A DNA stretch of 64,000 nucleotides. Origin: a virus (lineage: Duplodnaviria; Caudoviricetes). Below the pieces are notes generated by a model, which was given only the letters and a program-made list of their open reading frames with translations, did not search any database and was not told where the DNA came from. Shown here piece by piece: positions 15,853 to 43,076 of this stretch. The stretch lies in the IMG/VR virus record IMGVR_UViG_3300013936_000014; one strand, written 5' to 3'. Every line of letters begins with the position of its first letter. Positions within the stretch are counted from its first letter, which is position 1. The translations under genes were made by a program, and so were the position numbers.

Positions 15853-16761
15853 TCAAACGTCTTTCAGCGTATATCCAAGACCAACGGCTCCTGGGCCAAT
15901 GATTCCGCCATGAAGAGGGTCTATCCTTGAGATTTTGCAATCGAAAGGCCCTTTTCCCATCTTTTTCGCCATAGAGGAAAAGTATTTCGCGAATTTTTCC
16001 GCTCGTTCCTCGCTGTCTGTGTATCCCACTTCGACGATGCCATCTTCGGGATATCCTTCTTTCTCCAGCATGGACATAATCTTTTTCGATAAAGCCATAT
16101 CCCCGCCCATGAATTTCGCCGCGACGCGTATGGTTCCAGAGGTGTCGACTTTCATGATGGGCCTTATATCAAGGGTATTCCCCACAAAGGCGGAGACTCC
16201 CCCGACCTTGCCGTATTTGGCCAAATAGGTCAGATTTTTGGGAACAAAATAAACCACTCTCTTCCCAATACTTTTCGAAAGGAAATCCTCCACCTGCTTC
16301 ATGGTAGCCCCTGCGAGCCTCATGGCCGCGGCCCCAATCACCCACGGAACAGACCCCTGAGCGACAGACCTCGAATCATACGCAACGATTTTTCTTTTGG
16401 AAAATTCTCCGCGCAGCTCCTTGATCGCCATCGGAAGATCAACATCAAAAGTGTTGGTACCAAAGCGCGAAAAATGGATATAAAGCACATCTTTACCTTC
16501 TTTAAGAAAGGGGCGAAAATATTTTTTGTATCCTTCTGCCGTTATCTTCCAAGTGTATATCCGATCCGCTCTTCTAAGATTTTCGAAAAACGAGTCGAAA
16601 TCAAAAGGTTCTCCATCAGAGTAAGGAAAAAAATCTGTCTCTCCAACTCTCAAAGGCTCTGAAATGAGCTTTATGTCATACTCTTTGCTAATTTTATCGT
16701 CTATCCCGCAATTCGTGTCGCTGAATATCACGTAATCAGTATGCCCATTTGTTGTAATCAT
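15853..16761 (-). CDS. degV: DegV family fatty-acid-binding protein (FakB-like)
   Basis: IFSDTNC, DVLYIHFS..GT, YDS, LTYLAKYGK, LDIRPIM, IGPGAVGL match the DegV motif order; start ATG 16761. Confidence 0.85.
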   Translation of the reverse strand: MITTNGHTDYVIFSDTNCGIDDKISKEYDIKLISEPLRVGETDFFPYSDGEPFDFDSFFENLRRADRIYTWKITAEGYKKYFRPFLKEGKDVLYIHFSRFGTNTFDVDLPMAIKELRGEFSKRKIVAYDSRSVAQGSVPWVIGAAAMRLAGATMKQVEDFLSKSIGKRVVYFVPKNLTYLAKYGKVGGVSAFVGNTLDIRPIMKVDTSGTIRVAAKFMGGDMALSKKIMSMLEKEGYPEDGIVEVGYTDSEERAEKFAKYFSSMAKKMGKGPFDCKISRIDPLHGGIIGPGAVGLGYTLKDV

Positions 16762-17752
16762 AAAGAGCTCCTCTTTCTTCCAGTAATTGGAAGACCTCAT
16801 CCATTCCCTGTTTCGGAGTTTTCCCGGTGCTTGACCAATGGTCGGACCATCTTATCCCATATCGAAAATAATCGCGATTCGCCGGCCACACCTCGTCCTG
16901 ATGCTTTATGATCTCCTCGAATTTCCTCCAAACGAGAGGCGCGAACGCTTTCCCCGCTTTCATGATAAGCGGGGTTATTTTCACATAATCGCTTCTTTTC
17001 CTCATTAACCATATGGCCACGTATTTGAGTCCGGAGAAACACATCCCCATAATAACACCAAACTCATTAATCGTCATGGAACTCGTCCCATCGAGCTTGA
17101 TCTCGCGCCCGAGAAATTCCCTCGGCGTCATGTTGTAAGCTTGATATCTCGCTCCTTTTATCGCCCATTCGAGAAGGGTGTCATACCATATGCTCTCTTT
17201 CCCGTTTATCACATAAGAGCAGAAATAAAGCAAGGGGTGACGAGTGTCCGCTTCGCAATTCGGGAATCCAGGCGTTGTGCAGAACCGCCCCTCATATATG
17301 GAATATGAGGGGGTGGAAAGCTGCGGGCTTCTCTTCATTATGGCATAAACTTCTTCTCTGGGGAAATAAATGGTTCTTGCCACTTCTCCGTCTTTGCGGA
17401 GCCATCGAATGAAATAATCACCCTCAAAGCAATCGGTCGCAAACATATTCGTATTATGAAAATCGATATTGCTTAACCCTTCGCAATCCTTAAATGCTTT
17501 ATGCCCAATTTTCCTCATCGTTAAGGGGAAAGAAACGGACCTGAGCTCTTTGTGCCCGACGAACGCGAGTGGGGCGACTTCAGTCGCCCCTTCTCTTATC
17601 CATAAAATAGGGGGAAGTTTCACTTCTTTAAATGCTTCCGAACCGATAACGGTGGCTTCTTTGGGAAGGGTTACATTCAGGACTTCTCCCGAGACGTCCC
17701 CTTTTTCCAAATAAACCTTCACCACAATTCCTTTATCCACATCAAATTTCAT
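16736..17752 (-). CDS. protein with N-terminal BspA-type leucine-rich repeats
   Basis: LPKEATVIGSEAF, FPLTMRKIGHKAFKDCEGLSNI repeats; own promoter TTGACT-N17-TAACAT at 17785-17813. Confidence 0.7.
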   Translation of the reverse strand: MKFDVDKGIVVKVYLEKGDVSGEVLNVTLPKEATVIGSEAFKEVKLPPILWIREGATEVAPLAFVGHKELRSVSFPLTMRKIGHKAFKDCEGLSNIDFHNTNMFATDCFEGDYFIRWLRKDGEVARTIYFPREEVYAIMKRSPQLSTPSYSIYEGRFCTTPGFPNCEADTRHPLLYFCSYVINGKESIWYDTLLEWAIKGARYQAYNMTPREFLGREIKLDGTSSMTINEFGVIMGMCFSGLKYVAIWLMRKRSDYVKITPLIMKAGKAFAPLVWRKFEEIIKHQDEVWPANRDYFRYGIRWSDHWSSTGKTPKQGMDEVFQLLEERGALYDYNKWAY

Positions 17753-17818: not shown

Positions 17819-20800
17819 TTAGTGCTTATTGTTTCTGGTCAAGGCGGCGACTTGTCTCAATTGTTGCACAAATGAGTCGACGTTAAAGCTTCCATCCGCA
17901 TCTACGGTCATTTGAACCGTATTGATATTGACGGAATTGTCTGCAGAGCCGTCCGCGGCCGTCCCTGAAACGCTCATCCCGAGCAAAGCCTGCCTCTGCA
18001 AGGCGCTAAGCAGGTCTGGGGCATAATTTCCGAGGTTCCACAGATTCGATGTAATATCCGCCGGCACGATTCCGGAGTGCGAAGGCAAAGCCGTTATCGT
18101 CCCGCTTGGCGTGACGATGGCCTCAGATCCTTCTTCGTTCATGAGCAATGGGATTTTATTGCCCTTCGAAATATCGGTAGAACCTTTTTTGAAGCTTCCT
18201 CCTTTTTCTATGACGTCTTTCGGAACGTCGTTCTCAGAAACCCGCTTCGGCGCATCAAGCTTATAGGCAAGACCACCAATAAATCGAGTCCACTGCCCGC
18301 TCTTCCCAATACGGACCAAAGTCGGTCCATATAAATTGCCCTCCAACCATGAGGCAAAACCAGTAGAAGTGGTGTTCTCCTTGGCCGCATCATAGATGCT
18401 GACCGCTGTAATGTCATCTGAGTCTTTATTGACATAAAGCTTATGATTGCTGCCGCTCTCTCCAAGTGTGGCATTATAAAAATCAGCGCCCGTTTCGCCG
18501 TCTTTATCATAGAACTTGTTCCAATCAGAAGAAGACAAAACATCTGTTTTGCCAGGATTATACACGAACTTGTTCCAGTTGCCGCTGTCGTCCTTCTGAT
18601 AAAGGAACTGGTCTGGCTGCGCCTGTTTGTACCCAGCGCCGCCGGCGCCCGCGACCGTTGCGTCGTTTTTGCCGCCGAACATGTCATACATGTCGCCGCC
18701 TTCCGCGAAATCAGACGCTTTCCAATAGCCTTTCGACAAGCCGTCGTTGTAGGTGGATTGGTAGTTGCTCAAAGCGGTGTTGTACGCTTCTTGGGCTCTT
18801 GCCCTATCCTCATCGGAAAGATTGGGGTTGTTCATGGCTTCCTTTGCTTTCTGCAAGGCGTCGTATTGCTCCTTCAGCGTGGACTTTGAACTGTCCTCTT
18901 TCTTCTTATATTCCTTCATCCACTCATCCCATTTCTCGTTGGCTTGTTCAGAGTTTCCTTTTAATGTGTCTTCAAGAGAGGACCCGAGGCTGGAGATATT
19001 ATCGCTCGTCACCCCATTTGCATCGGAATAGGCCTGCAAGAAAGCCCTCTGAGTCGCTTCTTCCTGGTCGGACAGAATTGAGCTGAGGTAATCTTTGTCG
19101 GCGTTAAGCTGGTCTATCTGTTTGGTAACAGCGGAGACGCTCTTTTCATTCGTTATGGAATCCATGTTGTCTTTCGCTTCGGAAATGGCGGCTTGATCTT
19201 CCTCGTACACCCATCCGACGCCTTCGCGCCAGACCCTCTTCTTTTCTTTTGTCGCGTTTTCGAGCCTTATTTTTGCTTCAATCAGCTTATTCTCGTATTC
19301 TCTCTGAGAATTGATGTTTTGCATCGCCTCTTTCTGAGAAGTGAGATTGTTGATTTCCTTGTCTATCTGCGCGTTCTTGATGGAGACGACTTTCTCAAGG
19401 ACCTGCCTTTCTTCGTTGGACATCAATTTGATGTTCTTCAGCTCGGCTTGGGCCGCCTCGTTCAGTTTCTCCGAGAAACTGGTATCGTTATTGGCGACAT
19501 ATTGCTGCAAATCGTTGAAACTGTTGATCTGAGCCTGTGTGAACTGATCCCACTCGTCTCCCGAGAGGGACTCTTTCAGCTTATCGGAGAACGTATCGAA
19601 ATACGTCTCATTTGCCATGATGTCAGACATCTGGGCATCCGTCTGAAGCTTCTTATAGTCGCTCATTTTCTGGAACATCGCCAATGATAAGGTGTATTCG
19701 TCAGACGCGTACCCCAGAAGCTCTGGGTAAGTCTTCGCAACGCTTTGGAGAGTCGTTGCCCATGACTGCGAGCCGGACGCGATGTTCGTGATCGCCGTTT
19801 GCATGTCAGAGAATTTGCTCGACAAATCTTCTGCGCTAGCCGTCAGGTCGCCAAGGGTGAAGTTGCCGAATGCCGTTCCCAGCCCCTGCAGCTCATCGAC
19901 GCTCACGTGAAGGGCGTTGGCAAAATTATTGAGCATCTCCGTCTTCGTCTGCCCGTCTTTCATTCCAAGGATATCCGACAAACGGTAATTTTGTCCACTG
20001 ACTGCGCCATAAATATCCTCATTGGATTTCAACCCTTTGAGAATAGATTTCCTCGCGGCCGCCGTGACTTGCTTGTTGCCGTTCTCGTCTGTATAGAAAT
20101 AAGACGAGCCGTCGGCCATGCCCCCATACTTGTCTTGGAGGTAGGTTGCCATTTTTTCGATAATTGTATCGGTCCCCATGTCTTTAAGGGCATTTTGGCT
20201 AAGGTCAAGCAATGTTTTGTCCGTCCCATCGGCGTTTTTGCCGACAGACATCTCGAGAATCCCTTCTTCGACCCTTTGCTGGTCCATCTTGTCGCGGATT
20301 TTCTTTATGGTGTCGTTGATATTCTGCAATTTCGAGATCATGGCGCTCAGCTTGGCGGAATCCCCCTTGCCCTGAGCCTTCATCTCTTCCAGAGCGGCAA
20401 TCTGCTCATCCCTGGATTGGCTGTTCCAGGCCTCCAAGGTTTCTTCTCTGTCGACTTCGTTGGCCTTTTTTGCCGAGGCATAACCAGCCATTCCGCCAAT
20501 GGCAGCGCCGAACAGCGCCCCCGCCCAGGAAAACGCGCCTCCGCCTGCGAGGCCGCCAATGGCAACGCCCGCCGCGGCACCACTCGCGGTCAGCGCCGCT
20601 GTCCTCTTCTTAGCCCTGTCATTATATCCGCTGACGTCTAAATAATCGCTTTCAATGTCGGTGTTGAGGCTGTCGAGCTCTTTTTCGTACTCCGCATTTT
20701 CTGCGAGGTTTTCCTGCTTCGTCTGCGCCACCTTCAATGCGTATGCGGTCTTCTTTCTTTGAGCATCCGTCATATCGGCGAGGTTCGTCAACTCATCGAA

Positions 20801-23800
20801 AGATTTGGCCGCATACTCGTTTCCTTCGCTTTGGCCAGCGAGGAATTTGTTGGCATAAGCGACGAACTCGTCCTTGATCCCGGCGTTTTCAGACTTCGTC
20901 ATGAAATCCTTCAATTCATCCTGAGCTTTCACAAGGCTGCTATAATCATCGGCTGTCAAGGTCTCTTTGCTCGCCAAGTCAACGACATTCGTTATGGATG
21001 ATTTCGCCTCCTCCACCTGCTGTTTCTTTTTGTCGGCTTGTCCAAATCTGTCGTTTTTGAGGTTTTCGTCTCGCACAGCGGGAATAAGCTGCCCAATTAC
21101 GTAATTGTTTACAAAATCAGCGGCCGCCCCCGCTATCGCCCCGCCGGCCTCGCCTCCGAAGTAAGTGCCTATGGCGGTCGCGATTCCGGTGTTCGCCTGC
21201 ATGATGCCTTTGGCGTTTTCGTTGGTCGTCTCATTGGTCTCCCATTCTCCCGTGAATTGGTTTTTATGCTTGTTCCGGGTATCCGCGGACATGAATCCGG
21301 AAATTCCTGCGACAGCCGCGGCAACCGCTTTTGTGTTCTTTTCCTGCTTTTTCTTTTCGTCGAACTCTTTTCCGACCTCTACTTTGCTTGCCTCTCGCTG
21401 TTGCTTCAGCTCTTCGTATTTCTCTTTCGAAACGAAACCCAAGTGCCCTTTGGCCGAGTAAGTTCCGTTTTTATTCTGTTTAAGGGCGGAGAATTTGGTT
21501 CCGTCTTCGAGTTCTGGATCAATGGCGTGGGCCGCGATGTAATTGTCTCTTTCGAAGCCGGAAGAAAACATGTTGTATTCGTTTTTATTTCCTTTTAATT
21601 CATCGTTTTTGTTTATCAGCCTTTCTCTTTGCTTTCTGGCCTCTTTAAGCTCCGCGGCTTTTTTCCCGCCATCGTCTACTTCAAGAAGCCTATCGCTTTT
21701 GATCCCCGATTTCAGAGAGGCTTCTTTCTGTTTTAACCTCTTTATCTCTTTTTCGTTGTCTAATATATTTTTATCGAATTTTATCGCACTGATGGCTTTT
21801 TTCTTCTGTTTATCGGTAAGGCTGGTATCTGCAAACACTTCTTCTTCGGTGAGCCCGGAATATCTGTCCACATATAATTTTTTCCTGGTCTTGCCGTTTT
21901 TAAAATCGTCAAATGCCTTTTTGGCAAAACCTTTATCCCAAGCCAATTTTTGGCTGGCCAAGCTTTTTCGGTCTTCTTTGTATTTTGCCTTTTTTCTCTT
22001 TAGCTGATACTTTGATTCTTCTGTTGCATTCTTCCCTTCCGCGACATCTTTTTTATCATTTTCGATTTCTTCGAGGTCACGCTCTAATTCTTTTTCTTTG
22101 TCTCCGAACTCTAATTTCCTTAAAGCTTTTCTCTTGGCAAAAAGACTTAGTGTCGGATCCGAGAGGATTTTTTGCTTCTCGGCATCGACGTCTTGCCCTG
22201 CGCCTCGAGAATTTGCGACATATCGAGGATTTGCGACATAAGACTTGCCCTTCAAGCCTGGAACGGCTTTAGGAGCCGAAGATTTCCCCATATATCTGGT
22301 AATCTTTTTGACCTCATTTAAAATAGGGCTTGTGCCCTTCCTGATCTGGGAATCGATGAGTCCGCTTCTTCCGGTCTTCCCGCCGAACAGACCATAGGTT
22401 GGATCGAAAGAAGATTTTAATGTCGTTTTGAGCCCCTTCATGCTAAACCCGGCAAAGCTGCCCGATCTTTGCAGAATATTCAAAGCGTTCGCGGCGGCTT
22501 TTCCGGAGAACATTCTGATGAATGTTTTTGCGATAAACGGCAAATGCTCGACCAGCTTCGTCATTATGTTGTTGACCTGTTTGAAGAAATCGACGACTTC
22601 CGTCTTACTCGCCAATTCTTCCCACGCCGCGGCCAGCTTCTTCTGCGATGCCTCCAACGAATCTTCGTAGGCTTCGTATTTTTCCGCGGCAGTCCCCTCG
22701 GCATCCGCGGCCTCCTCTATGAAATCCTTGTATTTATCATAGTTTTCCATCAAAACAAGGAAGCTTTCCCTTTGTCTTGTGCCCGCCATTGCCGTAGCTA
22801 TGGCGTTTTTGCTGACGCTGTCGAGGGTCTCCCATTTGGCGGCGATATCATCAAGGACGTCATCGAAATCCCTGAATTCGAGATTGGATGTGCGCAAAGA
22901 GATGCCAAGCTTCTTCAAAACCTTGTCAATATCATTCAAAGATTCCGTGGTCTCGTTCTGGTCTCCAGTGATATTCATGCCAGAATAAGTCCCAGCCTTT
23001 ACATTTCCATATCTGGAAAGCATGGTCTTGATGGCGTTGCCCGTCGAAGACGCGTCTTTCTGAGAGACGTCCATGATCGTGGTTGCCATGGCGATAGATT
23101 CGTCAAGGTCAACCCCGGATAATTGAGCCGTCGTCGCGAACTGCCTTAAAGCTTCCGCGATGTCTCCGGCGCTGGTGGCGGCGGTCATGTCAACCTTCGT
23201 AAGCTTATCCACGACTTCCGTGGCGTCGCTGGCCTCGAGCTTGAACCCCTTCAACATAGAGGTTAAATAAGACGTGGCTTTCCCCGAATCGATCATACCG
23301 AGCTTGCTTAGCTGCAAAGAGGCGGTAATCAGGTCTATGGATTCCGAAACGGAATATCCTTGTCTAAGCCAATCATTCGCCGCAGACGCGACTTCGGATG
23401 TCGTCGAAGACATTTGCTGCGCGAGCGACGCGTATGTGGTGATGAGCTGCTTAGTGCTTTCTCTGCTATCTCCTGTGACAATCTGCAGGTTCACAAGGAC
23501 GGAATCAAGTTTTTCCGCGCTTTGGATGACGGTTGTTATGGCTTTTTGCACCTGCCCCAGTACCTTCCAGACGAGTTGGCCACGAATCATTTGATTAAAC
23601 CAGCCTTTGACACTCGTCGTTAATTGGGCCCAGATGGAAGGGTTGAGGTCCGACTGTAACGCTGCTATCTGCTGATCAGCAACGCCAGCTTCTTTGCTCG
23701 CCTTTTCCAGAATCTCCGCAAGCTGGTCAGCTCCGCCCACCGATTTTTCCCAATTGACTCCGCTGAGCGATTTGGCAAGAGCATCAAGCTCTCCCTGGTC

Positions 23801-26800
23801 TTTTTCGTTCGCCATATCATAGGCGAGTTTCTGTTGATTGGATATGCCACGGAGCCCCACCGCTCCAGACCGAGTTTCTCTTTCGTTGATCCTGCCTTGG
23901 ATCCTGATCATCTGGGAAAGGGTGCTTTGCAACCTTGTCTTGGCTTTGTTTTGCTCTTCTCCTATTTCGGTTCGACGAATCGCCTTCTGCTGTCGTCTGT
24001 CGGCTTTTATTTCTTTGTCGACGTCAATTTCCTCGCCGCTCTCCGTATTGTATTTCGAAAGATCGGCTTTTGTCTTTTTCGCTATTTCAATATTTTTGTC
24101 TATCTCTTTCAGCTTTTTCTCAAGCTCGTCCGCCTCTTTGCGAAGCTCGGCGACCTTGGCTTCCGTCTTTTCGTTCGAGGTATCCTTGAGAAGATAATCA
24201 ACCGTCTTTTTGCGTTCGAGATTCGCATTCTTCTCCTTCATGAGCCTCATGTAATCCGCGGCGACCTGCTCTTGCGTAGAATTGGCATATTTTAGATTCG
24301 GATCTGATACCCCTTCGACGTTGTATCCAGCATCTGCCATCTGCGTGACGATAGACTGCAGAAGTTTCATAGCCTCTTCTTTGGGAAGCTGGCCATTTGC
24401 GTATTTCTCGACCTGGGCCATTATCTCTTTGTGGCCAAGCGATTCAAAGGCTCGGTCCAATGAAACCAGTTCGGTCTTATGGGTTTTTGGATTTGTTTTT
24501 AAGATTCTGGAGACAGCGGTGTCTGCATGGATAAGCTGCTTATAATATTCTTCCCAGTTGACGTTCTTTTGGCCGTCGCTCTCCATCCTTTCCTGCAGGG
24601 CCTTAAAGACGGGCGAGTTCTTCCAGGCTTCAAAGCCTCCTCCGCCTTCTTTCTCGAACTCTTTCGCATAGGCGATATCTTGCCTTGCGGCAAACGAGTT
24701 CATGATCCCCTGGAGGATATCCCCCGCAGAGAGCTGTTGTCCCATCTTCGTTTTTAAGTCAACAAGGTCAAGGACATTGATGGTCTTGTTTTCGCCGTTT
24801 GGCATCGCATACGTCTCTTTTCTAAGCGAAGCCAAATCCGTGCGCCCGACATAAGACGTTTTGCCGCTTTTGCCTGTGACGCCAATGAATCCAGCCTCTG
24901 GCAATATAGCAGCTTTCCTCCCATCTATTTCCGCTCTGTTTTCGGGAGAATAGAAAGCATCCGTTGCCTGCATTTGGCTTTCCCACGCAGCAAGCAAATC
25001 GTCATAATCCTCGGCGCCATGCTTCGCGAGGAAGAATTTTTCGTCGTTATAGCCGTTTTCCCCGTGCACGGCCTTGAGAAAATCAAAATATTTGTTCTTG
25101 TTTTTTATGTAGTCTTCTCTTGCCGCCACCAGAGCTTTAACCTCGGGATGAGAATCCTTCTGAAGGGAATCTTTGTTGGCGTCATAGAGCTTTTCTAAGT
25201 CTTCGTTGCTGCTCCATGTCCAATTTTTCAATGAAGCGATGTCTTTTAGTTTTGAGAAATATTCGGTCTTTGCTCCGTATAAGCTACCCTTGAGCGCTGT
25301 TGCCTTATCTTCTCCGTCGCCGACAAACTGCCTCATTTGTTCCTTGGAACTATATCCGAAATACTTTTTGTCTTTGTTTGCCAGGATCTTGTCGACCAGG
25401 CCAGGATCGGCGCTTACCCCTGTATAAGGAGCAAACCCTTTTGTTATCGATGTGGTTGAAACAGGGGCGAGAAATTTCTTTTCTTTGAGGATCTTCGCCC
25501 CCTCGGCAGCGCTCATCAATCCATCGTTTTCCGCCACATTTGTGATTTTGTCAGAGAACCCGGTAATGGCTTCGAGGAAAATTGATAGAGCCTTGCCTAC
25601 TTCTCCACCAGATTTGCCCAATTCGGCTATTGCTTTGGATATTCTGTCGTTGGCGTTTTCGATGCCTTTCGCCCCGCCGTCTATCTCCGCTATCTGCTCT
25701 TGGGTCAGATGGCCGAAATAATAGGGATTCGACTCATAGTCCCTCTTCTCTGGAGTGTGCGTCTTGTTGATGGCGGACCTTACGAGCGTGTCTGTTGTGC
25801 CGTCCTGACCCGGCTCGCCTTTTCTCTGGGCGTATTTGGCGAAACGGTCGAACGACTTTGTGTACATATCGCCCGTGACGGTCCCGTAGTCTTCCACCCC
25901 AACCTTGCCGCTGAGCAGCATGTCGAAGAGATCTTTTTTGTCGTAATCCACTTTGGCGCGATCCAGTTTCCCATAAAGGGCCTTGGCCTCCGAGGTCTTG
26001 TCCCATTCCTCGAATCCGCCCTTGTTCTCGAAGAGCTTCGCGAATTCAACGTCTCTCTTGGTGGCTTTCCCATACATCGCGTACTCCCTGTATTTTCCTC
26101 CCGAGAGCTCTTTCAGCATCTTCTTCCCGCCCGCGATTCCGCTCTCTATCGCGAGAAGCCCGGCTTGGGTGGTGCGATTGAGGAGTTCGCCTTCGCCGCC
26201 CAGGAGGCCCATTTCGATCAGCTTCTCGTTCAACTCTTTGAATGTGATTTTCCTTTCGCGGAATTTTTTCTGGAGTTCTGAGACTTCTTCGAGGATTTGC
26301 TTCTGTTTGCTTAGAATCTCCTCTTGAGAGAGTTTCTTCGTCGCCTCCTCGACCGACATGTTCTTTTCTTTGGCCAATCTGTTTATGACTTTCTTCGCCG
26401 AGATGAGGTCTTGCTCCAGCGCCTCGAAGAAGGTTCTGATGATGATGGAGGATGCCGCGTTCTCATTCTCTTCTTTGAGTCCGTGGATCATCCCCGTCTC
26501 ATCGAATCCGAGGTCTCTCATCATGTTCCTCATTTGAGAGGCATAATTCGAGAAGACGCCGACCGCCCCTTTATTCTCTCTGCTCGCTATCTCGGCTGAT
26601 TGCGCGATCATGGCATCGGAGACGCCTTTGCCGAAATTGTCGCTGAGCACCCTGGAAGAGGCGTCTTTCTTCTCGTACTCCGCTTTCGCAATCCATGCGA
26701 GCTTTCTCATCACGTCTTGCTTGATATCTGCTGATTTGTCGAAGAGGACCCTTTCCGCGGGGGAAAGCTTGAGCAGCTTCAGGGCTTCGTGGTCACCGTC

Positions 26801-29800
26801 GAAGTCGGCGTTCTGCTTCTTCGCCAGACCGACCCCCAATTTTATGCCTTTCCCTTTCAGGTCTTTGTTGATGAAGATCTTATTGATAGTGTCGAGGTCC
26901 AACCCATTCATGAACGGGAAACGCCCCGCCATGCCGATGAGCCCGTGTGTCAGATTTCCGGACTGATAGGCTTTTTTCCAATCGTCGGAATCGACGGTGA
27001 GGACATCCAAGAGATGGTTTATCACCTCTTTTCTTGACATTTTGTCAATTGCTTGTGACTCGCCTTTTTTGTTCGTGTACGAAAGGCCGAATCCTTTGAG
27101 CATTTCCTTCAGCTCTTTGTTCGAGAAGAGATTTTTCTTGCTTCCGCCCGCTTTCTTCCCTCCCAGGAAGCCTTCCGCGGCGTCTCTCGAAATCTCCATG
27201 CCGAAAGAGGCAATATCAGATTTGAGGAGCCTGAGGTTGTCTCTCTGGGATTTGTCTTTCGCGATCTCGGATTCGTATTCCTCTTGGGACATTATCTCGG
27301 CGGTGTTGAACCCGATCGAGCTTCCGTTCATGGAATGCGACATCTTGCCCTTCATGAGATCCTTGAATTCCCCGCCTTCTTTGAATTTGACGCTGTTCGC
27401 CATGAGTTGGACGGTTTTGTTGGCGGCTTTTATTATTTTGCGGGGATCCCCCTCCTGCAGCGCGTACACAAGCTGACCATTCAGCTCATCTTTGTATCCG
27501 CTGCCGCCATAGCCCCTCCCGCCGGCCGAGGCTTTCTTGTTGAGATATATGGCTTTGCCTCCGAAGCCGTAATAATTCTTCCCGTCATAGGTGATTTTGT
27601 CGCCGAAGGTGTTGCCTTGGGTGTCGATGACCACCTGGAAGTCATCCTCCCTCGCCTGCGCTTTCTTCAGCTCGTCTATCTGCCGCTCCCTTTTTTCGAT
27701 CTCTTTCTCGTCGCCTTTGTTCCTCAGGTCTGCCAATTCCTTCTCCAAAGCCGATATCTTCTCGATTCTTTCGTTGTTGGCTTTATCCGCGAGAATTTTC
27801 CTTTGTTGGTCAATCGCATACACGAGGGTCTTCTCTTCGTTGAGGATATCGCCGCCGCCGCCTGGGATATAAGAAGGGGCCTCGATCTGATCGATGTCGA
27901 TCGTGTACCCTTTCCCTTTCCCGACGGTTATGTATTTGCTTTGGTCGAGCCCTTTGACGTCAACCCCCTCCGTGAGGGTTTTCTTCATCATGGCTACGGC
28001 TTCCTCATTGGAGCTCTTCAGCTTTTCCAGCCTTGCTTTGTTTTTTTCGTAGGCGTTGAATTGGGAGGCTATGTCATCGGCGACGTCATAGGCGTTTTTA
28101 TTGTTCCCCGCCGCCATTTTTTCCTTTTCTTCTTCAGTCAGGGAGGCTGCCGCCATGGTCAGCCCCCTCACTGCGGAATCGTAGCCAGTTACGAAATCAA
28201 CCGCCCCTTCGTCGGAGTAATAGCCATAAGACGGGTTGACATCCCCTCCGATGTTGACCCACTCGGTTTTCGTGTTGCCGGTGCGAACGAGGTTGCCGTT
28301 TTTGTCAAGGTCGTACGCCTTGCCGAAGCCTCTGTTGCCACCGAAATAGTCTCTGAGGGTGTCGATGTAATTGAGATAATATGACAATTGTTTCTCATCC
28401 GTCCCGCTTATGTATTTGTCAACCTTCTCTTTGTCATCCGTTATATAGACTTTGTCCCCATTCTCCACAGGTTCTAGGATGCTGCGGAGGAATTCCGCGG
28501 ATTTCCTCTGCATTTCGTCGTCGCTTTTGCTGTCTTTCTCCAACCTGTTGAAAAAATCCATGATCTTGCCGTTTTCGCGGAGGTCCGTCAAAGTGCTGAT
28601 GATATCCCCTTTGAGCAAAGCTCCATAGCTTCTGGCGTCTTTTTCGTCTCTTCCGTAGATGACCTGTATGTTGCTGTCTTCCAGATTTCCCGCCTCTTTT
28701 CCGTTGGAATAGGCTTTGATTTTGCCGAATTCGCCATGATGCGCCATTGTCATGGAAGTGCGCAGCTGGCCATTGGAGCTCACGCCTTTTCTGCCATCTT
28801 CCATAGGGACTCTGCCTTCGCCGGAGACGGTGACTCTTCCATCGCCTTCTCTGAATATGCCGACGTTGGCTCTGTCAGGAGTGCCGCTGTCTGCCTTGAA
28901 AAGGGTCATATGCTTTTTTCGGAGATAATTCACGAACATATCCGTGTAAAGCAGGTCCTCGTCCTTCACTGTTCCGTCATCGTTGAGAATTTCCTGTAGA
29001 TAGGCCAATCTTTTCGCTTTTTTCTTACTGAGATTCTTCTTTTTGCTGCCTTCTTTGATTTTCTTGTATTCCTCGTTTAGGGCTTCTGTCGCATCTTCCA
29101 CGTCTTTTTGCACGAAAGTCTCGTTCACGGTGTGGTGGGATGTGTCCATCACTTCCGCCAGATCTTTCGAAATGACGGTCTGCCCTTCTTTGACTGAGAG
29201 GTTGGAGAATCCCTGTTTGGCCAACTCGGCATCCGTCATTTCGACGGCCAGTACCGCAGCGTCGTACGCGACGCGGTTGTCGGGGCCGTTTATGACATTC
29301 GCCGCATACTTGATTTGCTTGGCCTCCCCCGTTTTCGAGGCTAATATGCCCCTGGCGTACATTTTGGAGAGCCTTTGCACCTTTTTCTCATCTCCAAGGA
29401 TATTGTGGGCATTGGTCCTCCCTTGCTCCCTTTTGACCGGCGACAGAAGGATGTCACCAGGCACGTCGTTTCTGTGCATCGTCGACGCTTTATCATTGTT
29501 GAAGGCCTCTTCCGAATTGTTGGCGGCGTCGTATACGAGGCCTTTCTCTCTCATGCTGTGCAGCACCTTTTTGAAATTGTCGTATCCATCTTTTCTGGCG
29601 AATGCCTTCTTAAGGCCGTCCTCTCTCAACTCAAGTATCTTGAGAGCCTCTCCCTCGTCTTTCGCTTGGGTGTACAGAGCCACGACCTCCAATATCTTGT
29701 TTTTGTACGCGGAATCCATTCTATAAGACTCCTCCATGCCTTCCAGCAATGGGGCGACATTGATCCTCTCGGATAAACCGGCGTCTATTTCGTGCGAACC

Positions 29801-30454
29801 AGTGGCATAGCTGTTCGTGTCTTTGTCCTGCAGGTCCGTGCCTGTTTTCAATGAAAGGCTTTTGATCGTCTTGGAAGCTTTGGAAAAGGCGTATTTGGCA
29901 CTTTCCAATTTGTCGGCGCCGCTGTCTTTCTTCATGAATTTCCTGATTTCCCTCAGCTTGTCGTTCACGATCAGCATTTCGCCTTCATTCGCCTTGACTC
30001 TTAGGGCGCTGGCTTTTTCGGGTTCCAGTTTGTCTATGTAGTCATTGACATAGGAATGCCCGTATTTAACCGTATCGTCGAACGCGACATTGAATCTCTG
30101 CGTGAATGAATGGGCGGCGGTCTTATCGATATTCTCCCCTTTCCCATTGAGCACTTTGTCTTTGTATAAAGGGTCGTATACCAGCACGTCGTATCCCGTC
30201 AGCGTCCCTGACTCGCTTTTTCTCGGACGCACCTGAGCCGCAAGCCCCATGGAGTTGAGCTGCTGGCTGAAATCCACCAGCTGTTTAGTCAGATTGTTGT
30301 CTTTTATGTCTTTCGCGATGTGGGCGTTCTGCTTCCTTATGGAAGGATCGCTTTTTTCGAGCACTTCCTCGTAATATTCCCCTGTGAAGACTTTGTTGTC
30401 TTTATTCTGCCTGATGAACTCGTTTAAGTCCATCGGTTCGCCGTATTCTATCAT
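17819..30454 (-). CDS. tape measure protein fused to an N-terminal single-chain two-barrel RNA polymerase and a PD-(D/E)xK-like domain (4211 aa)
   Basis: TP901-type TMP core at about aa 2315-2600 (WLRQGYS, VVDKLTKVD, GNAIKTMLSR); C-terminal NEEGSEAIV; RxP...NADFDGD at aa 1178-1221; GRTD...DLKT at aa 1870-1902. Confidence 0.9.
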   Translation of the reverse strand: MIEYGEPMDLNEFIRQNKDNKVFTGEYYEEVLEKSDPSIRKQNAHIAKDIKDNNLTKQLVDFSQQLNSMGLAAQVRPRKSESGTLTGYDVLVYDPLYKDKVLNGKGENIDKTAAHSFTQRFNVAFDDTVKYGHSYVNDYIDKLEPEKASALRVKANEGEMLIVNDKLREIRKFMKKDSGADKLESAKYAFSKASKTIKSLSLKTGTDLQDKDTNSYATGSHEIDAGLSERINVAPLLEGMEESYRMDSAYKNKILEVVALYTQAKDEGEALKILELREDGLKKAFARKDGYDNFKKVLHSMREKGLVYDAANNSEEAFNNDKASTMHRNDVPGDILLSPVKREQGRTNAHNILGDEKKVQRLSKMYARGILASKTGEAKQIKYAANVINGPDNRVAYDAAVLAVEMTDAELAKQGFSNLSVKEGQTVISKDLAEVMDTSHHTVNETFVQKDVEDATEALNEEYKKIKEGSKKKNLSKKKAKRLAYLQEILNDDGTVKDEDLLYTDMFVNYLRKKHMTLFKADSGTPDRANVGIFREGDGRVTVSGEGRVPMEDGRKGVSSNGQLRTSMTMAHHGEFGKIKAYSNGKEAGNLEDSNIQVIYGRDEKDARSYGALLKGDIISTLTDLRENGKIMDFFNRLEKDSKSDDEMQRKSAEFLRSILEPVENGDKVYITDDKEKVDKYISGTDEKQLSYYLNYIDTLRDYFGGNRGFGKAYDLDKNGNLVRTGNTKTEWVNIGGDVNPSYGYYSDEGAVDFVTGYDSAVRGLTMAAASLTEEEKEKMAAGNNKNAYDVADDIASQFNAYEKNKARLEKLKSSNEEAVAMMKKTLTEGVDVKGLDQSKYITVGKGKGYTIDIDQIEAPSYIPGGGGDILNEEKTLVYAIDQQRKILADKANNERIEKISALEKELADLRNKGDEKEIEKRERQIDELKKAQAREDDFQVVIDTQGNTFGDKITYDGKNYYGFGGKAIYLNKKASAGGRGYGGSGYKDELNGQLVYALQEGDPRKIIKAANKTVQLMANSVKFKEGGEFKDLMKGKMSHSMNGSSIGFNTAEIMSQEEYESEIAKDKSQRDNLRLLKSDIASFGMEISRDAAEGFLGGKKAGGSKKNLFSNKELKEMLKGFGLSYTNKKGESQAIDKMSRKEVINHLLDVLTVDSDDWKKAYQSGNLTHGLIGMAGRFPFMNGLDLDTINKIFINKDLKGKGIKLGVGLAKKQNADFDGDHEALKLLKLSPAERVLFDKSADIKQDVMRKLAWIAKAEYEKKDASSRVLSDNFGKGVSDAMIAQSAEIASRENKGAVGVFSNYASQMRNMMRDLGFDETGMIHGLKEENENAASSIIIRTFFEALEQDLISAKKVINRLAKEKNMSVEEATKKLSQEEILSKQKQILEEVSELQKKFRERKITFKELNEKLIEMGLLGGEGELLNRTTQAGLLAIESGIAGGKKMLKELSGGKYREYAMYGKATKRDVEFAKLFENKGGFEEWDKTSEAKALYGKLDRAKVDYDKKDLFDMLLSGKVGVEDYGTVTGDMYTKSFDRFAKYAQRKGEPGQDGTTDTLVRSAINKTHTPEKRDYESNPYYFGHLTQEQIAEIDGGAKGIENANDRISKAIAELGKSGGEVGKALSIFLEAITGFSDKITNVAENDGLMSAAEGAKILKEKKFLAPVSTTSITKGFAPYTGVSADPGLVDKILANKDKKYFGYSSKEQMRQFVGDGEDKATALKGSLYGAKTEYFSKLKDIASLKNWTWSSNEDLEKLYDANKDSLQKDSHPEVKALVAAREDYIKNKNKYFDFLKAVHGENGYNDEKFFLAKHGAEDYDDLLAAWESQMQATDAFYSPENRAEIDGRKAAILPEAGFIGVTGKSGKTSYVGRTDLASLRKETYAMPNGENKTINVLDLVDLKTKMGQQLSAGDILQGIMNSFAARQDIAYAKEFEKEGGGGFEAWKNSPVFKALQERMESDGQKNVNWEEYYKQLIHADTAVSRILKTNPKTHKTELVSLDRAFESLGHKEIMAQVEKYANGQLPKEEAMKLLQSIVTQMADAGYNVEGVSDPNLKYANSTQEQVAADYMRLMKEKNANLERKKTVDYLLKDTSNEKTEAKVAELRKEADELEKKLKEIDKNIEIAKKTKADLSKYNTESGEEIDVDKEIKADRRQQKAIRRTEIGEEQNKAKTRLQSTLSQMIRIQGRINERETRSGAVGLRGISNQQKLAYDMANEKDQGELDALAKSLSGVNWEKSVGGADQLAEILEKASKEAGVADQQIAALQSDLNPSIWAQLTTSVKGWFNQMIRGQLVWKVLGQVQKAITTVIQSAEKLDSVLVNLQIVTGDSRESTKQLITTYASLAQQMSSTTSEVASAANDWLRQGYSVSESIDLITASLQLSKLGMIDSGKATSYLTSMLKGFKLEASDATEVVDKLTKVDMTAATSAGDIAEALRQFATTAQLSGVDLDESIAMATTIMDVSQKDASSTGNAIKTMLSRYGNVKAGTYSGMNITGDQNETTESLNDIDKVLKKLGISLRTSNLEFRDFDDVLDDIAAKWETLDSVSKNAIATAMAGTRQRESFLVLMENYDKYKDFIEEAADAEGTAAEKYEAYEDSLEASQKKLAAAWEELASKTEVVDFFKQVNNIMTKLVEHLPFIAKTFIRMFSGKAAANALNILQRSGSFAGFSMKGLKTTLKSSFDPTYGLFGGKTGRSGLIDSQIRKGTSPILNEVKKITRYMGKSSAPKAVPGLKGKSYVANPRYVANSRGAGQDVDAEKQKILSDPTLSLFAKRKALRKLEFGDKEKELERDLEEIENDKKDVAEGKNATEESKYQLKRKKAKYKEDRKSLASQKLAWDKGFAKKAFDDFKNGKTRKKLYVDRYSGLTEEEVFADTSLTDKQKKKAISAIKFDKNILDNEKEIKRLKQKEASLKSGIKSDRLLEVDDGGKKAAELKEARKQRERLINKNDELKGNKNEYNMFSSGFERDNYIAAHAIDPELEDGTKFSALKQNKNGTYSAKGHLGFVSKEKYEELKQQREASKVEVGKEFDEKKKQEKNTKAVAAAVAGISGFMSADTRNKHKNQFTGEWETNETTNENAKGIMQANTGIATAIGTYFGGEAGGAIAGAAADFVNNYVIGQLIPAVRDENLKNDRFGQADKKKQQVEEAKSSITNVVDLASKETLTADDYSSLVKAQDELKDFMTKSENAGIKDEFVAYANKFLAGQSEGNEYAAKSFDELTNLADMTDAQRKKTAYALKVAQTKQENLAENAEYEKELDSLNTDIESDYLDVSGYNDRAKKRTAALTASGAAAGVAIGGLAGGGAFSWAGALFGAAIGGMAGYASAKKANEVDREETLEAWNSQSRDEQIAALEEMKAQGKGDSAKLSAMISKLQNINDTIKKIRDKMDQQRVEEGILEMSVGKNADGTDKTLLDLSQNALKDMGTDTIIEKMATYLQDKYGGMADGSSYFYTDENGNKQVTAAARKSILKGLKSNEDIYGAVSGQNYRLSDILGMKDGQTKTEMLNNFANALHVSVDELQGLGTAFGNFTLGDLTASAEDLSSKFSDMQTAITNIASGSQSWATTLQSVAKTYPELLGYASDEYTLSLAMFQKMSDYKKLQTDAQMSDIMANETYFDTFSDKLKESLSGDEWDQFTQAQINSFNDLQQYVANNDTSFSEKLNEAAQAELKNIKLMSNEERQVLEKVVSIKNAQIDKEINNLTSQKEAMQNINSQREYENKLIEAKIRLENATKEKKRVWREGVGWVYEEDQAAISEAKDNMDSITNEKSVSAVTKQIDQLNADKDYLSSILSDQEEATQRAFLQAYSDANGVTSDNISSLGSSLEDTLKGNSEQANEKWDEWMKEYKKKEDSSKSTLKEQYDALQKAKEAMNNPNLSDEDRARAQEAYNTALSNYQSTYNDGLSKGYWKASDFAEGGDMYDMFGGKNDATVAGAGGAGYKQAQPDQFLYQKDDSGNWNKFVYNPGKTDVLSSSDWNKFYDKDGETGADFYNATLGESGSNHKLYVNKDSDDITAVSIYDAAKENTTSTGFASWLEGNLYGPTLVRIGKSGQWTRFIGGLAYKLDAPKRVSENDVPKDVIEKGGSFKKGSTDISKGNKIPLLMNEEGSEAIVTPSGTITALPSHSGIVPADITSNLWNLGNYAPDLLSALQRQALLGMSVSGTAADGSADNSVNINTVQMTVDADGSFNVDSFVQQLRQVAALTRNNKH

Positions 30455-30457
30455 AGA

Positions 30458-30796
30458 TTATTCCCCCCTTGCGTTTTCCTTGCGTAATTTGCTGATTAGC
30501 GACGCGACTGCCGGAACAATCCAGCGGAACACGAACAGCACACCCGAGACCCCCGCGCACAAGCACCATCCCACCAACCTAAAGATAAGAGTGGAAACAA
30601 AATTATCTCTGCAATTGGAATAGACATATGCTGCCTCCACCCCCAGCATCCTGTAAATGGTGAATTCATTCCAGAACGACTGGTTTGCCAAGACGACCGA
30701 ATAAGAAACGCATTTAAGGCAAGAAATAAGAAAAAATGCCCCAAGAATGGTTCCCGTAATCAATACGAGATTTTTGTACTCCGTATTTTTTTTCAT
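30458..30796 (-). CDS. small membrane protein (about 2 TM segments)
   Basis: AGGAGG RBS; two hydrophobic stretches; directly upstream of the TMP gene. Confidence 0.6.
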   Translation of the reverse strand: MKKNTEYKNLVLITGTILGAFFLISCLKCVSYSVVLANQSFWNEFTIYRMLGVEAAYVYSNCRDNFVSTLIFRLVGWCLCAGVSGVLFVFRWIVPAVASLISKLRKENARGE

Positions 30797-30855
30797 AAAT
30801 ACCTCCTTTCAGGCTTTCTGCCTTAAATAAAAACACCCTTTTATTCGAGCATAGT

Positions 30856-30886
30856 AAAAAAGAGGATTGCGCATAATGCAATCCTC
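30856..30886 (-). terminator. intrinsic terminator
   Basis: GAGGATTGC/GCAATCCTC stem plus T6. Confidence 0.7.
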
Positions 30887-30941
30887 GCAGAAGAAAATCT
30901 CTTCTTCAATGGCCAGTATCCTGGCTCTGATATAAATGATC

Positions 30942-31006
30942 GGTCAAAAACAAGGGAATCGAACCCATGACCTTCTGAGGCCAGCTCGCCTTTCGAGCTG
31001 TTTTTG
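30942..31006 (-). ncRNA. tRNA-like element lacking a normal anticodon arm
   Basis: Acceptor stem CAAAAAC/GTTTTTG-A-CC, D-arm GCTC-GAAAGGC-GAGC, variable AGGTC, T-arm ATGGG-TTCGATT-CCCTT; only 9 nt where the 17-nt anticodon arm should be. Confidence 0.6.
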
Positions 31007-31008
31007 AT

Positions 31009-31052
31009 AAAAAAAGACGAGTCATTCGATTCCCACATACCGAATGACTCGT
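31009..31052 (-). terminator. intrinsic terminator of the ACAGCA-hairpin transcript
   Basis: 12-bp stem ACGAGTCATTCG/CGAATGACTCGT plus T7. Confidence 0.8.
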
Positions 31053-31057
31053 TTAAC

Positions 31058-31206
31058 TAGACGCTACTTTTGAAAGATTTTAATCTCGTGTTTATTGATT
31101 GCTGTGCGCGTCTATGTTCTAGGCTCATCATATTCCTTATCAAAAAGATCAATATTGCTGTTAGAGCCTAAACACGAAGAAGAGAACGAATGCTGTTTTC
31201 CTCTTC
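31058..31206 (-). ncRNA. array of three stem-loops each carrying ACAGCA at the 5' side of the loop
   Basis: Stems GAAGAGG/TCTCTTC (31179-31206), TAGGCTC/GAGCCTA (31120-31170) and TAGACGC/GCGTCTA (31058-31114). Stem sequences differ but pair; ACAGCA is invariant. Confidence 0.7.
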
Positions 31207-31214
31207 ATGTATAT

Positions 31215-31242
31215 ATTATACAATTGATTTGACTTGTGTCAA
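31215..31242 (-). promoter_or_regulatory. consensus sigmaA promoter driving the ncRNA locus
   Basis: TTGACA-N16-TATAAT, with no ORF before the next terminator. Confidence 0.8.
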
Positions 31243-32808
31243 TTACTTCTTCGCTTCTTCGAAGGCGATCTTCTCGATCTTCGAATAACGTTCCCCATTC
31301 AGAGTTTTTTCGAGCATAGCCTTGGAGTCGCATTCCCCCAAAGCCACCCTTTCATATAAATTCGGGGTAAACCCGGAGATCAGCGTAACACCAAGATCAT
31401 TCTGCAGGATAGGCACCGTGTCTGAACGGCTTCCGACATTCCAGAATACCAATTTAGGAAGCTTGTACCCATGTCTTTCGAATCTCTCGCCAGCTATTTC
31501 GATTGGGTTGTTGAAACGGCCGATGGAATCATTGTCCGCATCCACAACGCATTCATCGAATTCCATGTCGCTGATGATGAGGATGGTTCTGGGGAGATCT
31601 TCCTGACGCAGATTCTTCGAGACGGCCACTCCGAGGATCAGGTCAAACACGGCCTCTATGTTGGTGTTGGCAACCTCGCCGTTTTCCTCGAGATATTCCA
31701 AGATGTCTTTCAGACTTCTCTTTTGGGAAATATCAAGGAAACGGGGAGTCCTGCTGAAAGTGATCATCTTGCCATTATATTCGCCTTTCAGATGTTGGGC
31801 CCCGTAGATGGCTATGGAGTATGCGACATCCTGAGCCGTGACGCGGCTCTTCAAGGAGACGTAAGAGTACATCGACCCGCTTCCATCCGCGACAACCAGA
31901 CAGCTGTCAAGCCCTGAGGCGTCTTTCAGATTCTTCCATGCCAACTCCAAAGTCGCGTCTTCTTCCCCTGTTTTCTCCTCAAATCCAAGTTTGCTCATGT
32001 ATTTATGAACGATGTCGTAAGGGAAAACGGCAGAGGAATTCATCTTCAAGCCTTTTTTCCCTTTCTCGAGATCAGAGAGATATTGAGAGCGTCTTGGTCC
32101 ATCGTGTCTCATGAAAGCCTCTTTGTAAGCCAGATTGGCGCATGAGGGGACCGCGTTATAATCTACTTTATCCCAGTCATTCGCGCTCATATTCCGCTCG
32201 ACGATGTTTAATTTGCTTCGCATTGCACGCAAGGCCTTCCTATATACCTTCGGCGCAAGGGAAAGTCTCTTTCTTATTTTTGCGGCAAGTCGCCTGGTGA
32301 CCTTGCTGCTGGCATTCTCCGAAGGCAGCCACTTCGCAAGAAGAGTTACATTCTCTCCTTTAGAGAAGGCGATCATATCACGCATGAAGGTTCTTTCGAT
32401 GAAATCATATGCGATATCTTGCACTGAAGCATCGACATCGTCATCCAGTAGGCAGAAAATGTCATCAGCTCTGCCATATTCCATAATATAGTCGCAAACA
32501 TGGGCAATTATTTTTTCCTTTTCTTGAAATTCGCTTGCCGCAAACCTTTTAAGGCAGATTCTGAAAGTCCTTCTTTCGCCCAAACCGTTTTTGATATCGC
32601 GGATATAAAACAGAAAACGAAGAACGTTCTCGTTTTTGGAATCCAATACCTTCTCAAAATCTTCCTCGATATCTTTGGACTCTTTGCGGCGATAAGAAGC
32701 CAGCCTAAAGCTAAAATCAACCATTGGATCAAAGGTCGATTTGTATCCTTGCGCCCCTTTTTCGGTCACGGAGATGTTGTCGACTGCCTTCAAAAAAATG
32801 TCTTCCAT
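31243..32808 (-). CDS. DUF2828 / TROVE(Ro60)-like protein with C-terminal vWA domain
   Basis: TEKGA, FYIRDIKNGLGERRTF, EYGRADD, LAKWLPSE, vWA MIDAS VADGSGSM, TNIEAVF, ISDMEFD, VFWNV. Confidence 0.85.
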   Translation of the reverse strand: MEDIFLKAVDNISVTEKGAQGYKSTFDPMVDFSFRLASYRRKESKDIEEDFEKVLDSKNENVLRFLFYIRDIKNGLGERRTFRICLKRFAASEFQEKEKIIAHVCDYIMEYGRADDIFCLLDDDVDASVQDIAYDFIERTFMRDMIAFSKGENVTLLAKWLPSENASSKVTRRLAAKIRKRLSLAPKVYRKALRAMRSKLNIVERNMSANDWDKVDYNAVPSCANLAYKEAFMRHDGPRRSQYLSDLEKGKKGLKMNSSAVFPYDIVHKYMSKLGFEEKTGEEDATLELAWKNLKDASGLDSCLVVADGSGSMYSYVSLKSRVTAQDVAYSIAIYGAQHLKGEYNGKMITFSRTPRFLDISQKRSLKDILEYLEENGEVANTNIEAVFDLILGVAVSKNLRQEDLPRTILIISDMEFDECVVDADNDSIGRFNNPIEIAGERFERHGYKLPKLVFWNVGSRSDTVPILQNDLGVTLISGFTPNLYERVALGECDSKAMLEKTLNGERYSKIEKIAFEEAKK

Positions 32809-32877: not shown

Positions 32878-33543
32878 TCAGCCGAGCTCTTCCAATATGT
32901 TGTCGAGCTCCGCGCACCATCTTGACCTCATGCTTTTCACCAGTTCCACATGAGCCACCCATGGGGTTTGAACGTCTTTGAATTTATCTATTACTCTCTG
33001 AAAATCACATTTGCCTTTTTTTCTTTGTTCTATATCATCTATCTGATTCATGCTGCCCAACAATATAACTTTACAATAATCACTCATTCTAGTAAGAACC
33101 GTTTTAATGGAGGCAAGGTTGAGATTCTGACATTCGTCAACAATGAGAATTGTTCCAGGAGCAAAATTTCTCCCTCGAAGAAATCCAAGTGGTTCGACAT
33201 CAACTTTCGCTTGCAACTCTCTTGGGTGCATTTTATTCGTACTATTCCTGCAAAGACTCTCAAAAGTATCATATAAAGGACTCATATAAGGCTCAAATTT
33301 ATCTTCCAAACTTCCTTTAAGGAAACCCAAAGATTTTCCAACCTCAACAGGATTTCTGGTATAAATAATCTTTCGATATTTTTTCTGATCCAAAAGTTCT
33401 AAAGCCGTCGCCATCGTGACAAAATCCTTCCCAGTACCGGCGGCACCAGTAACGATAATCACGGGGATGTCGTTCGTCATTATCAAGCGAGACGCTTCCT
33501 GTTGTTCTTCATTGCCCTTAAGGCTGATTCCTAAAACTGACAA
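32878..33543 (-). CDS. phoH: PhoH family ATPase
   Basis: GAAGTGKD, LGFLKGSLEDK, FLRGRNF, DECQNL, LTR, QID; TTG start after AAGGAGG. Confidence 0.92.
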   Translation of the reverse strand: MSVLGISLKGNEEQQEASRLIMTNDIPVIIVTGAAGTGKDFVTMATALELLDQKKYRKIIYTRNPVEVGKSLGFLKGSLEDKFEPYMSPLYDTFESLCRNSTNKMHPRELQAKVDVEPLGFLRGRNFAPGTILIVDECQNLNLASIKTVLTRMSDYCKVILLGSMNQIDDIEQRKKGKCDFQRVIDKFKDVQTPWVAHVELVKSMRSRWCAELDNILEELG

Positions 33544-33720
33544 ATGAGATTCCTCCTTATTTGTTTTATAACCCAAATTCTAAGAAGAAAGGGCTATTCG
33601 GCCATTCGCCGATAAAGCAAATGCGGCCAAGCCGCCTGCCCTACCGTTACCGCGCACGCCACGTGGAGGCTGGCCCAAGTACGCTTAAAGCCCGAATAAT
33701 CGGGCTGCTCAATCACGACT

Positions 33721-41701: not shown

Positions 41702-41725
41702 GTATTAAATCTCCTTATGAAAATT

Positions 41726-41755: not shown

Positions 41756-41763
41756 CAGTGATT

Positions 41764-43059: not shown

Positions 43060-43076
43060 ATTTCCTTACCCCCTCA

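Follow-up and report, generated by a model that had tools for sequence, protein, structure and literature searches.

Results

A giant tape measure gene and its relatives

We analysed a stretch of viral DNA of 64,000 nucleotides (IMG/VR record IMGVR_UViG_3300013936_000014; Duplodnaviria, Caudoviricetes), referred to below as the window, and within it the gene for a giant tail tape measure protein (TMP). The window is clearly phage DNA, since it encodes tail-fibre proteins, a tail protein, a holin, an integrase, NrdD, PhoH, a DnaB-like helicase and a homing endonuclease. The TMP gene is a single uninterrupted open reading frame (ORF) that codes for 4211 amino acids (aa), and a previous, sequence-only reading of the window had placed a β-like and then a β′-like catalytic barrel of a single-chain RNA polymerase (RNAP) N-terminal to a TP901-type core in its product. 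The features of the gene and its surroundings are listed in Table 1. We confirm this observation, and our results support the reading that the protein starts with a complete single-chain RNAP core of cellular type.

The TMP core itself is readily recognised. The NCBIfam model TIGR01760 scored 113.9 bits and, because its cut-off is 28.8, the TP901-type assignment is correct; PF10145 matched aa 2344-2558 (E 2e-29), also above its curated threshold (103.3 bits, cut-off 33.2). Neither aa 1-350 nor the linker of aa 1426-2071 matched any family, and ESM Atlas look-ups of aa 1-350 and of aa 1451-2070 scored below 0.9.

Relatives were sought with an exhaustive HMMER search of aa 351-1450 against 1.8 billion cluster representatives, which returned 20 proteins only, 12 of them 1700-4300 aa in length. 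A word-indexed search gave 42 full-length relatives, which are 3900-4600 aa long and come without exception from ENA or Logan metagenome assemblies, on contigs of up to 170 kb; PF10145 was present in 42/42, and the layout of the fusion was the same in every one. In total the same architecture was seen on more than 50 independent contigs from different sources. Aa 1-1550 had no tblastn match among the INPHARED phages, and no relative turned up in IMG/VR, whether the protein or the family alignment served as the query. Four distant relatives (25-29% identity) lie on metagenome-assembled genome (MAG) contigs labelled Christensenellaceae, Bacteroidaceae, Bacilli and Lachnospiraceae. The conservation counts given below and in Table 1 are from an alignment of 54 members that are 25-61% identical.

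The N-terminal region contains two predicted RNA polymerase modules

When a structure predicted by AlphaFold2 (AF2) without templates (model 1) was compared with the PDB, RNAP β′ was retrieved, and aa 821-1425 match β′/Rpb1 by fold. The VIA alignment of this model to Rpb1-type chains reaches aa 1425, in a stretch of low confidence. Sequence profiles led to the same place. A profile of 17 family members, searched against all PDB sequences, gave vaccinia rpo147 (residues 378-428, E 6.6e-5) and phiKZ gp55 (E 1.5e-4) as its best matches, followed by dozens of bacterial β′ subunits, and every match paired the family's GRxPF...NAD[FY]DGD with the RAPTLH...NADFDGD segment. The 54-member profile aligned by hhalign to E. 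coli RpoC alone at residues 421-472 (E 5e-4), and PF00623 (RNA_pol_Rpb1_2) was matched by three family members (best E 1.4e-7); tblastn of RpoC against the window gave E 0.045.

A published filter for two-barrel RNAPs, [RK]xPx{20,100}DxDxD (PMC10770324, Suppl. Data 4), was matched with a DxDGD-type ending once in the six-frame translation of the window, in the TMP ORF, and every family member carries it. No second [RK]xP...DxDGD gene was found in the window or in loci L002 and L005-L008. All the motif strings that had been picked out by eye are present at the residues quoted for them, with NADFDGD at aa 1215-1221 (nt 26792-26812), and they turn out to be the conserved positions of the family: RxP...D[FY]DGD is invariant (54/54), as are D1217, D1219 and D1221 individually, and N1215 is kept in 53/54 members. 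The motifs exceed chance resemblance because they are invariant or nearly so across the 54 sequences, and we conclude that the active-site signature is under strong purifying selection. Further downstream, NKGxxGxFSN and EQDxISxKK stand at the places expected for the bridge helix and the trigger loop and are candidates for these elements; the former falls in a low-confidence helical stretch of model 1, and the latter begins ~130 aa beyond DFDGD.

The connector between the two barrels comprises ~350 aa, and the model aligns to β′ from residue ~11-21, that is, from its N-terminus. It contains a helical hairpin that is predicted with confidence (predicted local distance difference test score, pLDDT, 83-95), is long in the closest relatives only and is gapped in the distant ones. 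This suggests that clamp-like elements may be retained in the connector.

For the β-like module, AF2 model 2 (aa 351-830, 38-sequence alignment, no templates) was of good confidence (pLDDT 84.3, predicted template modelling score 0.71). It can be seen from a Foldseek search of the PDB that the top 50/50 matches of this model are RNAP β/Rpb2 chains, with E values from 5.7e-5 and 22 of them at E≤1e-3; generic double-psi β-barrels likewise match it. In a viral structure library most of the matches were second RNAP subunits, from giant viruses and from phiKZ-like phages, and at the top of the list stood a 'Minor tail protein' of an uncultured Siphoviridae member (E 6.9e-8), which is most simply read as another unrecognised polymerase fused to a tape measure. 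K556 and R565 sit on adjacent strands of model 2 (E205-209 and E214-220), and these two residues and R608 are presumably equivalent to the β residues named in Table 1. D398, where the barrel starts, is kept in 52/54 family members. When the family profile was aligned to RpoB with hhalign no similarity to β could be detected at the sequence level, and the identity of this module as β-like rests on the predicted fold. A 21-residue non-significant match to RpoB 131-151 in the same alignment was rejected, since by fold search the region corresponds to the barrel in the C-terminal part of β. The two models, the rpo147 and β′ profile matches and the PF00623 hits in relatives together bear out the proposed order of barrels, and the structure prediction and fold search that the sequence-only reading had suggested as a check retrieved RNAP β and β′.

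The fusion is kept in distant relatives, and the protein is free of cysteine

In two distant relatives an RNAP ORF (2292 and 2128 aa) is followed by a gap of ~330-380 nt and then by an ORF whose start falls midway through the PF10145 profile. On the Lachnospiraceae MAG contig the gap holds a group I intron (L008:13312-13604; RF00028, 83.6 bits), and on the Bacteroidaceae-labelled MAG contig it holds a further one (L006:7704-8014; RF00028, 42.8 bits, E 2e-9 in a local search, below the gathering threshold). Therefore these relatives are intron-interrupted versions of the same fusion gene. In both, the intron interrupts the RNAP-TMP gene at the same place in the TMP core. In some relatives the part of the protein that separates polymerase from TMP core, which in the window protein is the unexplained 640-aa linker, contains a PD-(D/E)XK nuclease domain (PF12705, E 6e-5 to 3e-10); the carriers are the ORF L008:6473-13351 (aa 1736-1874) of the Lachnospiraceae MAG contig and two members of alignment A1.

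The window protein has no cysteine in 4211 aa. Among 47 relatives of more than 3000 aa the median is likewise zero, and 46/47 have none at all. Since the other ORFs of the window contain 1.24% cysteine, ~18 residues would be expected in the polymerase part alone. P23-45 gp96, a tail-tape-fused virion RNAP considered below, also has none in 5002 aa (L001:13288-28296), and RpoB, RpoC and YonO have 7, 15 and 14, respectively. We read the zero count as an indirect sign that the polymerase part may share the fate of the TMP, namely extended storage and ejection.

Genomic neighbourhood

Downstream of the TMP gene are a tail protein (phrog_1887) and a 1707-aa protein. The genes for the DegV-family protein and the BspA-type leucine-rich-repeat (LRR) protein come next downstream of the TMP gene, in a position that one would expect a distal tail protein to occupy. 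In the 170-kb relative (L002), too, an LRR gene lies downstream of the TMP gene; this relative in addition has an IS605 OrfB/TnpB (Cas12f-like) gene right after the TMP gene (L002:23426-24529) that is absent from this position in the window. On the other side, a 112-aa ORF of no known family abuts the start of the TMP gene; between this ORF and the Ro60-like and PhoH genes are ~450 nt (30797-31242) in which there is no long ORF. The Ro60-like and PhoH arrangement is conserved in the 170-kb relative (L002:6352-8981); in this relative, on a contig of 169,879 bp and 47% identical to the window protein, both genes likewise lie upstream.

Elsewhere in the window, further fibre-like genes occur at 38510-44195 besides the four consecutive ones of Table 1. 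The gap between the two NrdD ORFs gave no Rfam intron at the gathering threshold, and Rfam and tRNA scans of the window gave no match. The tyrosine integrase and the homing endonuclease are found in a phage that is otherwise large and lytic-like. The strong Shine-Dalgarno sequence, the DegV and BspA-LRR neighbours and the MAG contigs of the distant relatives, most of them Bacillota, are weakly suggestive of a Bacillota host.

Table 1. Positions in the window of the tape measure gene, its parts and other genes.
Feature	Position	Strand	Support or remarks
Whole gene, RNAP-tape measure fusion protein (P0001)	17819..30454	-	One ORF; 42 full-length relatives
Shine-Dalgarno sequence AAGGGGGGA, strong	30462..30470	-	8 nt upstream of the ATG at 30454; read from sequence
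aa 1-350, N-terminal region, fold not recognised	29405..30454	-	Kept in close relatives (alignment A2)
aa 351-820, β (Rpb2)-like module	27995..29404	-	
aa 398-739, double-psi β-barrel B with insertions	28238..29263	-	
E423 in KEGQTVISK, candidate counterpart of β E813/D814	29186..29188	-	Acidic 51/54; followed by G424, 51/54
K556...R565 in RVPMEDGRKGVSSNGQLRT, candidate counterparts of β K1065/K1073	28760..28789	-	Basic 53/54 (556); R/K 54/54 (565)
R608 in NIQVIYGRDEKDARSYG, candidate counterpart of β R1106	28631..28633	-	53/54
aa 821-1425, β′ (Rpb1)-like module	26180..27994	-	
aa 877-939, long helical hairpin in the connector between barrels, possible clamp-helix-like element	27638..27826	-	Helices H527-563 and H566-581 of model 1
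K1025-x-G1027-x-x-[FY]...K1037 in KEGGEFKDLMKGKMSHS, by-eye likeness to β′ KQGRFRQNLLGK	27344..27382	-	K1025 53/54, G1027 53/54, aromatic at 1030 54/54
R1178-F-P1180 (GRFP)...N-A-D1217-F-D1219-G-D1221, barrel A core, predicted catalytic Mg-binding aspartates	26792..26923	-	R, P and three D 54/54
N-K1295-G-x-x-G1299-x-F-S1302-N1303 (NKGAVGVFSN), candidate bridge-helix start	26546..26575	-	K 53/54; G, S, N 54/54
E1347-Q-D-x-I-S-x-K-K1355 in EALEQDLISAKK, candidate trigger-loop/helix element	26390..26416	-	E, Q1348, D1349, S1352, K1354, K1355 54/54
aa 1426-2071, linker between RNAP and TMP core	24242..26179	-	Fold not recognised
aa 2072-3481, tape measure core	20012..24241	-	PHROG TMP families phrog_4211 (E 4.9e-49), phrog_991, phrog_1533, phrog_28
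aa 2305-2617, TP901-family tape measure core domain	22604..23542	-	TIGR01760 (tape_meas_TP901) E 7.9e-33
aa 3285-3320, Gly/Ala-rich hydrophobic segment, candidate membrane-inserting part of the TMP	20495..20602	-	Sole stretch with Kyte-Doolittle 19-residue mean ≥1.2
aa 3482-4211 and stop, C-terminal TMP part	17819..20011	-	No domain recognised
DegV-family protein	15853-16800	-	PF02645 E 5e-39
BspA-type leucine-rich-repeat protein	16736-17752	-	PF13306
Ro60/TROVE-like RNA-binding protein	31243-32808	-	phrog_850 E 8e-109; DUF2828 in relative
PhoH	32878-33576	-	Upstream of TMP gene
NrdD (anaerobic ribonucleotide reductase) as two ORFs	45823-46833, 46997-48355	-	N- and C-terminal family halves, ~160 nt apart
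Tyrosine integrase	49156-50166	-	phrog_1 E 7e-33
Four consecutive collagen-like tail-fibre genes (218, 301, 308, 395 aa)	53751-57444	-	Same PHROG fibre families
Homing/HNH endonuclease, 607 aa	57986-59809	-	phrog_3339 E 3e-92

Discussion

Because the giant ruler protein of the tail begins with an RNAP core, the phage probably injects its own transcription enzyme. We favour, with a probability of roughly 0.7, the reading that this is a TP901-type TMP of which the first ~1430 residues are a single-chain two-barrel RNAP that would be ejected and would transcribe the genes that enter the cell first. The steps set out here are drawn by analogy with gp96 and from general TMP biology. The protein would be stretched out along the tail tube, its C-terminus at the tip and its polymerase end facing the head, and would leave the tail before the DNA does. 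A membrane channel may form with the help of the Gly-rich hydrophobic segment, and the polymerase end would then fold at or inside the cytoplasmic membrane, on its cytoplasmic face, and there begin to transcribe those phage genes that enter first, with no need of the host RNAP. Catalytic Mg2+ would be bound by the three invariant aspartates, as is the case throughout the two-barrel RNAPs. Catalytic activity, presence in the virion, refolding and a role in early transcription are inferred, the last three by analogy and from the cysteine-free composition. In P23-45, 5002 aa correspond to a tail of ~800 nm, and at that ratio a protein of 4211 aa predicts a tail of roughly 650 nm.

Several observations weigh against this reading. 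A folded polymerase with a clamp-like connector is too large for the lumen of the tail tube, so that one has to suppose transit in an unfolded state. Beside the TMP gene, no gene for a tail tube, chaperone or sheath protein was recognised. A Pfam scan of the window protein returned PF10145 only, with no RNAP model at E≤1, and phmmer of aa 1-1550 against PDB sequences gave no match. The counterpart of the N-terminal half of β (lobe and protrusion) was not recognised, and Zn-binding cysteines are absent. Finally, model 1 is of moderate confidence only (pLDDT 69) and is poor over aa 1263-1302; since this stretch includes the proposed bridge helix, the bridge helix and the trigger loop are not established.

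A potential alternative is that an active polymerase is delivered with the TMP but that its main job is to pull the ~150-kb genome into the cell or to make primers for replication. Transcription-driven genome entry is established for T7, and both the conserved catalytic motifs and the tethering of the module to a channel-forming TMP would suit such a role. Internalisation and early expression are not exclusive, however, and the P23-45 enzyme does make pre-early mRNAs (PMC10770324). A separate priming system is likely, moreover, because the window encodes a DnaB-like helicase/primase-helicase homologue. We regard this alternative as unlikely.

Somewhat less probable still is that the RNAP module is cleaved from a TMP precursor, or is active only in the infected cell, and so serves as a non-virion polymerase or as a domain needed during assembly. 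Proteolytic processing is seen in many TMPs, and the gene lies away from recognisable tail tube and chaperone genes. On the other hand, relatives with as little as 25-29% identity keep the fusion, including those in which the gene is split by a group I intron, and the RNAP part is free of cysteine, like the TMP part and the virion enzyme gp96 and unlike the cytoplasmic RpoB, RpoC and YonO.

That the RNAP-derived fold no longer polymerises, and acts for example as a DNA-binding domain or a structural plug, might be argued from the want of a sequence match to RpoB, from bridge helix and trigger loop elements that are candidates only and from the N-terminal β domains that were not found. We consider it improbable, as all or nearly all of 54 sequences that are otherwise 25-61% identical keep the three aspartates, RxP, the three basic residues of barrel B and the two downstream motifs, a pattern such as a working active site would be expected to show. 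Chance resemblance of motifs or an assembly chimera, to which the weak direct similarity (the tblastn value of 0.045 with RpoC) might have pointed, is refuted by independent fold searches, by profile searches and by more than 50 independent contigs with the same architecture.

The reading of the protein as an ejected virion RNAP has a real precedent, as had been pointed out. In P23-45 the N-terminal part of gp96 is a virion RNAP, and among the pre-early genes that it transcribes is one for a second, non-virion RNAP (PMC10770324); TMP-fused virion RNAPs are described for the Thermus phages P23-45, P74-26, G20c and TSP4 (Chaban et al., 2024, PMC10770324; PDB 8H2M, 8H2N). In both gp96 and the window protein a single-chain two-barrel RNAP forms the N-terminus of a giant TMP (5002 and 4211 aa), DFDGD follows [RK]xP, the TMP has hydrophobic segments and cysteine is absent. 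However, gp96 is clamp-less, with a disordered connector of ~66 aa, whereas the connector of the window protein is some 350 aa long and has a confident helical hairpin. Our literature search for other TMP-fused RNAPs found the P23-45 paper (PMC10770324) alone. The layout had been shown before only in one Thermus phage lineage, apparently unrelated to the present family.

No specific kinship of the family to gp96 or to YonO is apparent, and multisubunit RNAPs score best in every test. They (β/β′, Rpb2/Rpb1, poxvirus rpo132/rpo147 and the split subunits of phiKZ and AR9) are the best fold matches of both modules, and they share with the window protein the full NADFDGD context and RxP. Unlike them, the window protein has its modules in one chain and fused to a virion-type protein, has a core of ~1100 rather than ~2700 aa, lacks Zn-binding cysteines and recognisable N-terminal β lobes, and has a β-like part without detectable sequence similarity to β. 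It resembles the β′ core but is not an orthologue of cellular β′, because it has no Pfam RNAP match at E≤1 and no cysteine in its whole length. SPbeta YonO is likewise a single-chain two-barrel phage RNAP, from a phage that infects Bacillota, but it is a stand-alone protein of 839 aa that contains cysteine and has DNDGD; hhalign of the family profile against YonO gave no active-site alignment, with the limited sensitivity of a single-sequence template. In phi14:2, which is a crAss-like phage, gp66 (PDB 6VR4) is a virion-delivered single-chain two-barrel RNAP within a giant multidomain protein. The N4 virion RNAP is also a giant enzyme that is packaged in the virion and injected to carry out early transcription, but its fold is the T7-like right hand, and it travels in the capsid and is not fused to a TMP.

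We therefore class the window protein as a two-barrel RNAP joined to a TP901-type TMP, which probably works as gp96 does but which we do not place in the gp96 family; it is apparently an independent, cellular β/β′-type variant of the tail-tape-fused virion RNAP. Tentatively, and at a little under even odds, it may go further: the family may be a second independent origin of such enzymes, derived from the multisubunit β-β′ lineage and not from one of gp96, YonO or crAss type, with its clamp-like connector kept, widespread in uncultured phages of ~140-170 kb in anaerobic, Bacillota-rich communities, and acting first in a cascade of two polymerases, the other being a separate YonO-like enzyme, should the same genome encode one.

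The TMP-fused virion RNAP was found only in 2024, and in one thermophilic phage lineage, that of Thermus. The family described here has more than 50 distinct members in metagenomes, which public databases label as tail proteins only, and a sequence-unrelated family with the same layout would make the 'polymerase on the tape' a recurrent route to host-independent early transcription. It offers a compact (~1100 aa), cysteine-free, single-chain core of the cellular β/β′ type, of use for studying a minimal two-barrel enzyme and the unfolded transit through the tail tube and refolding of a large polymerase, and it makes very long TMPs worth screening for enzymatic cargo.

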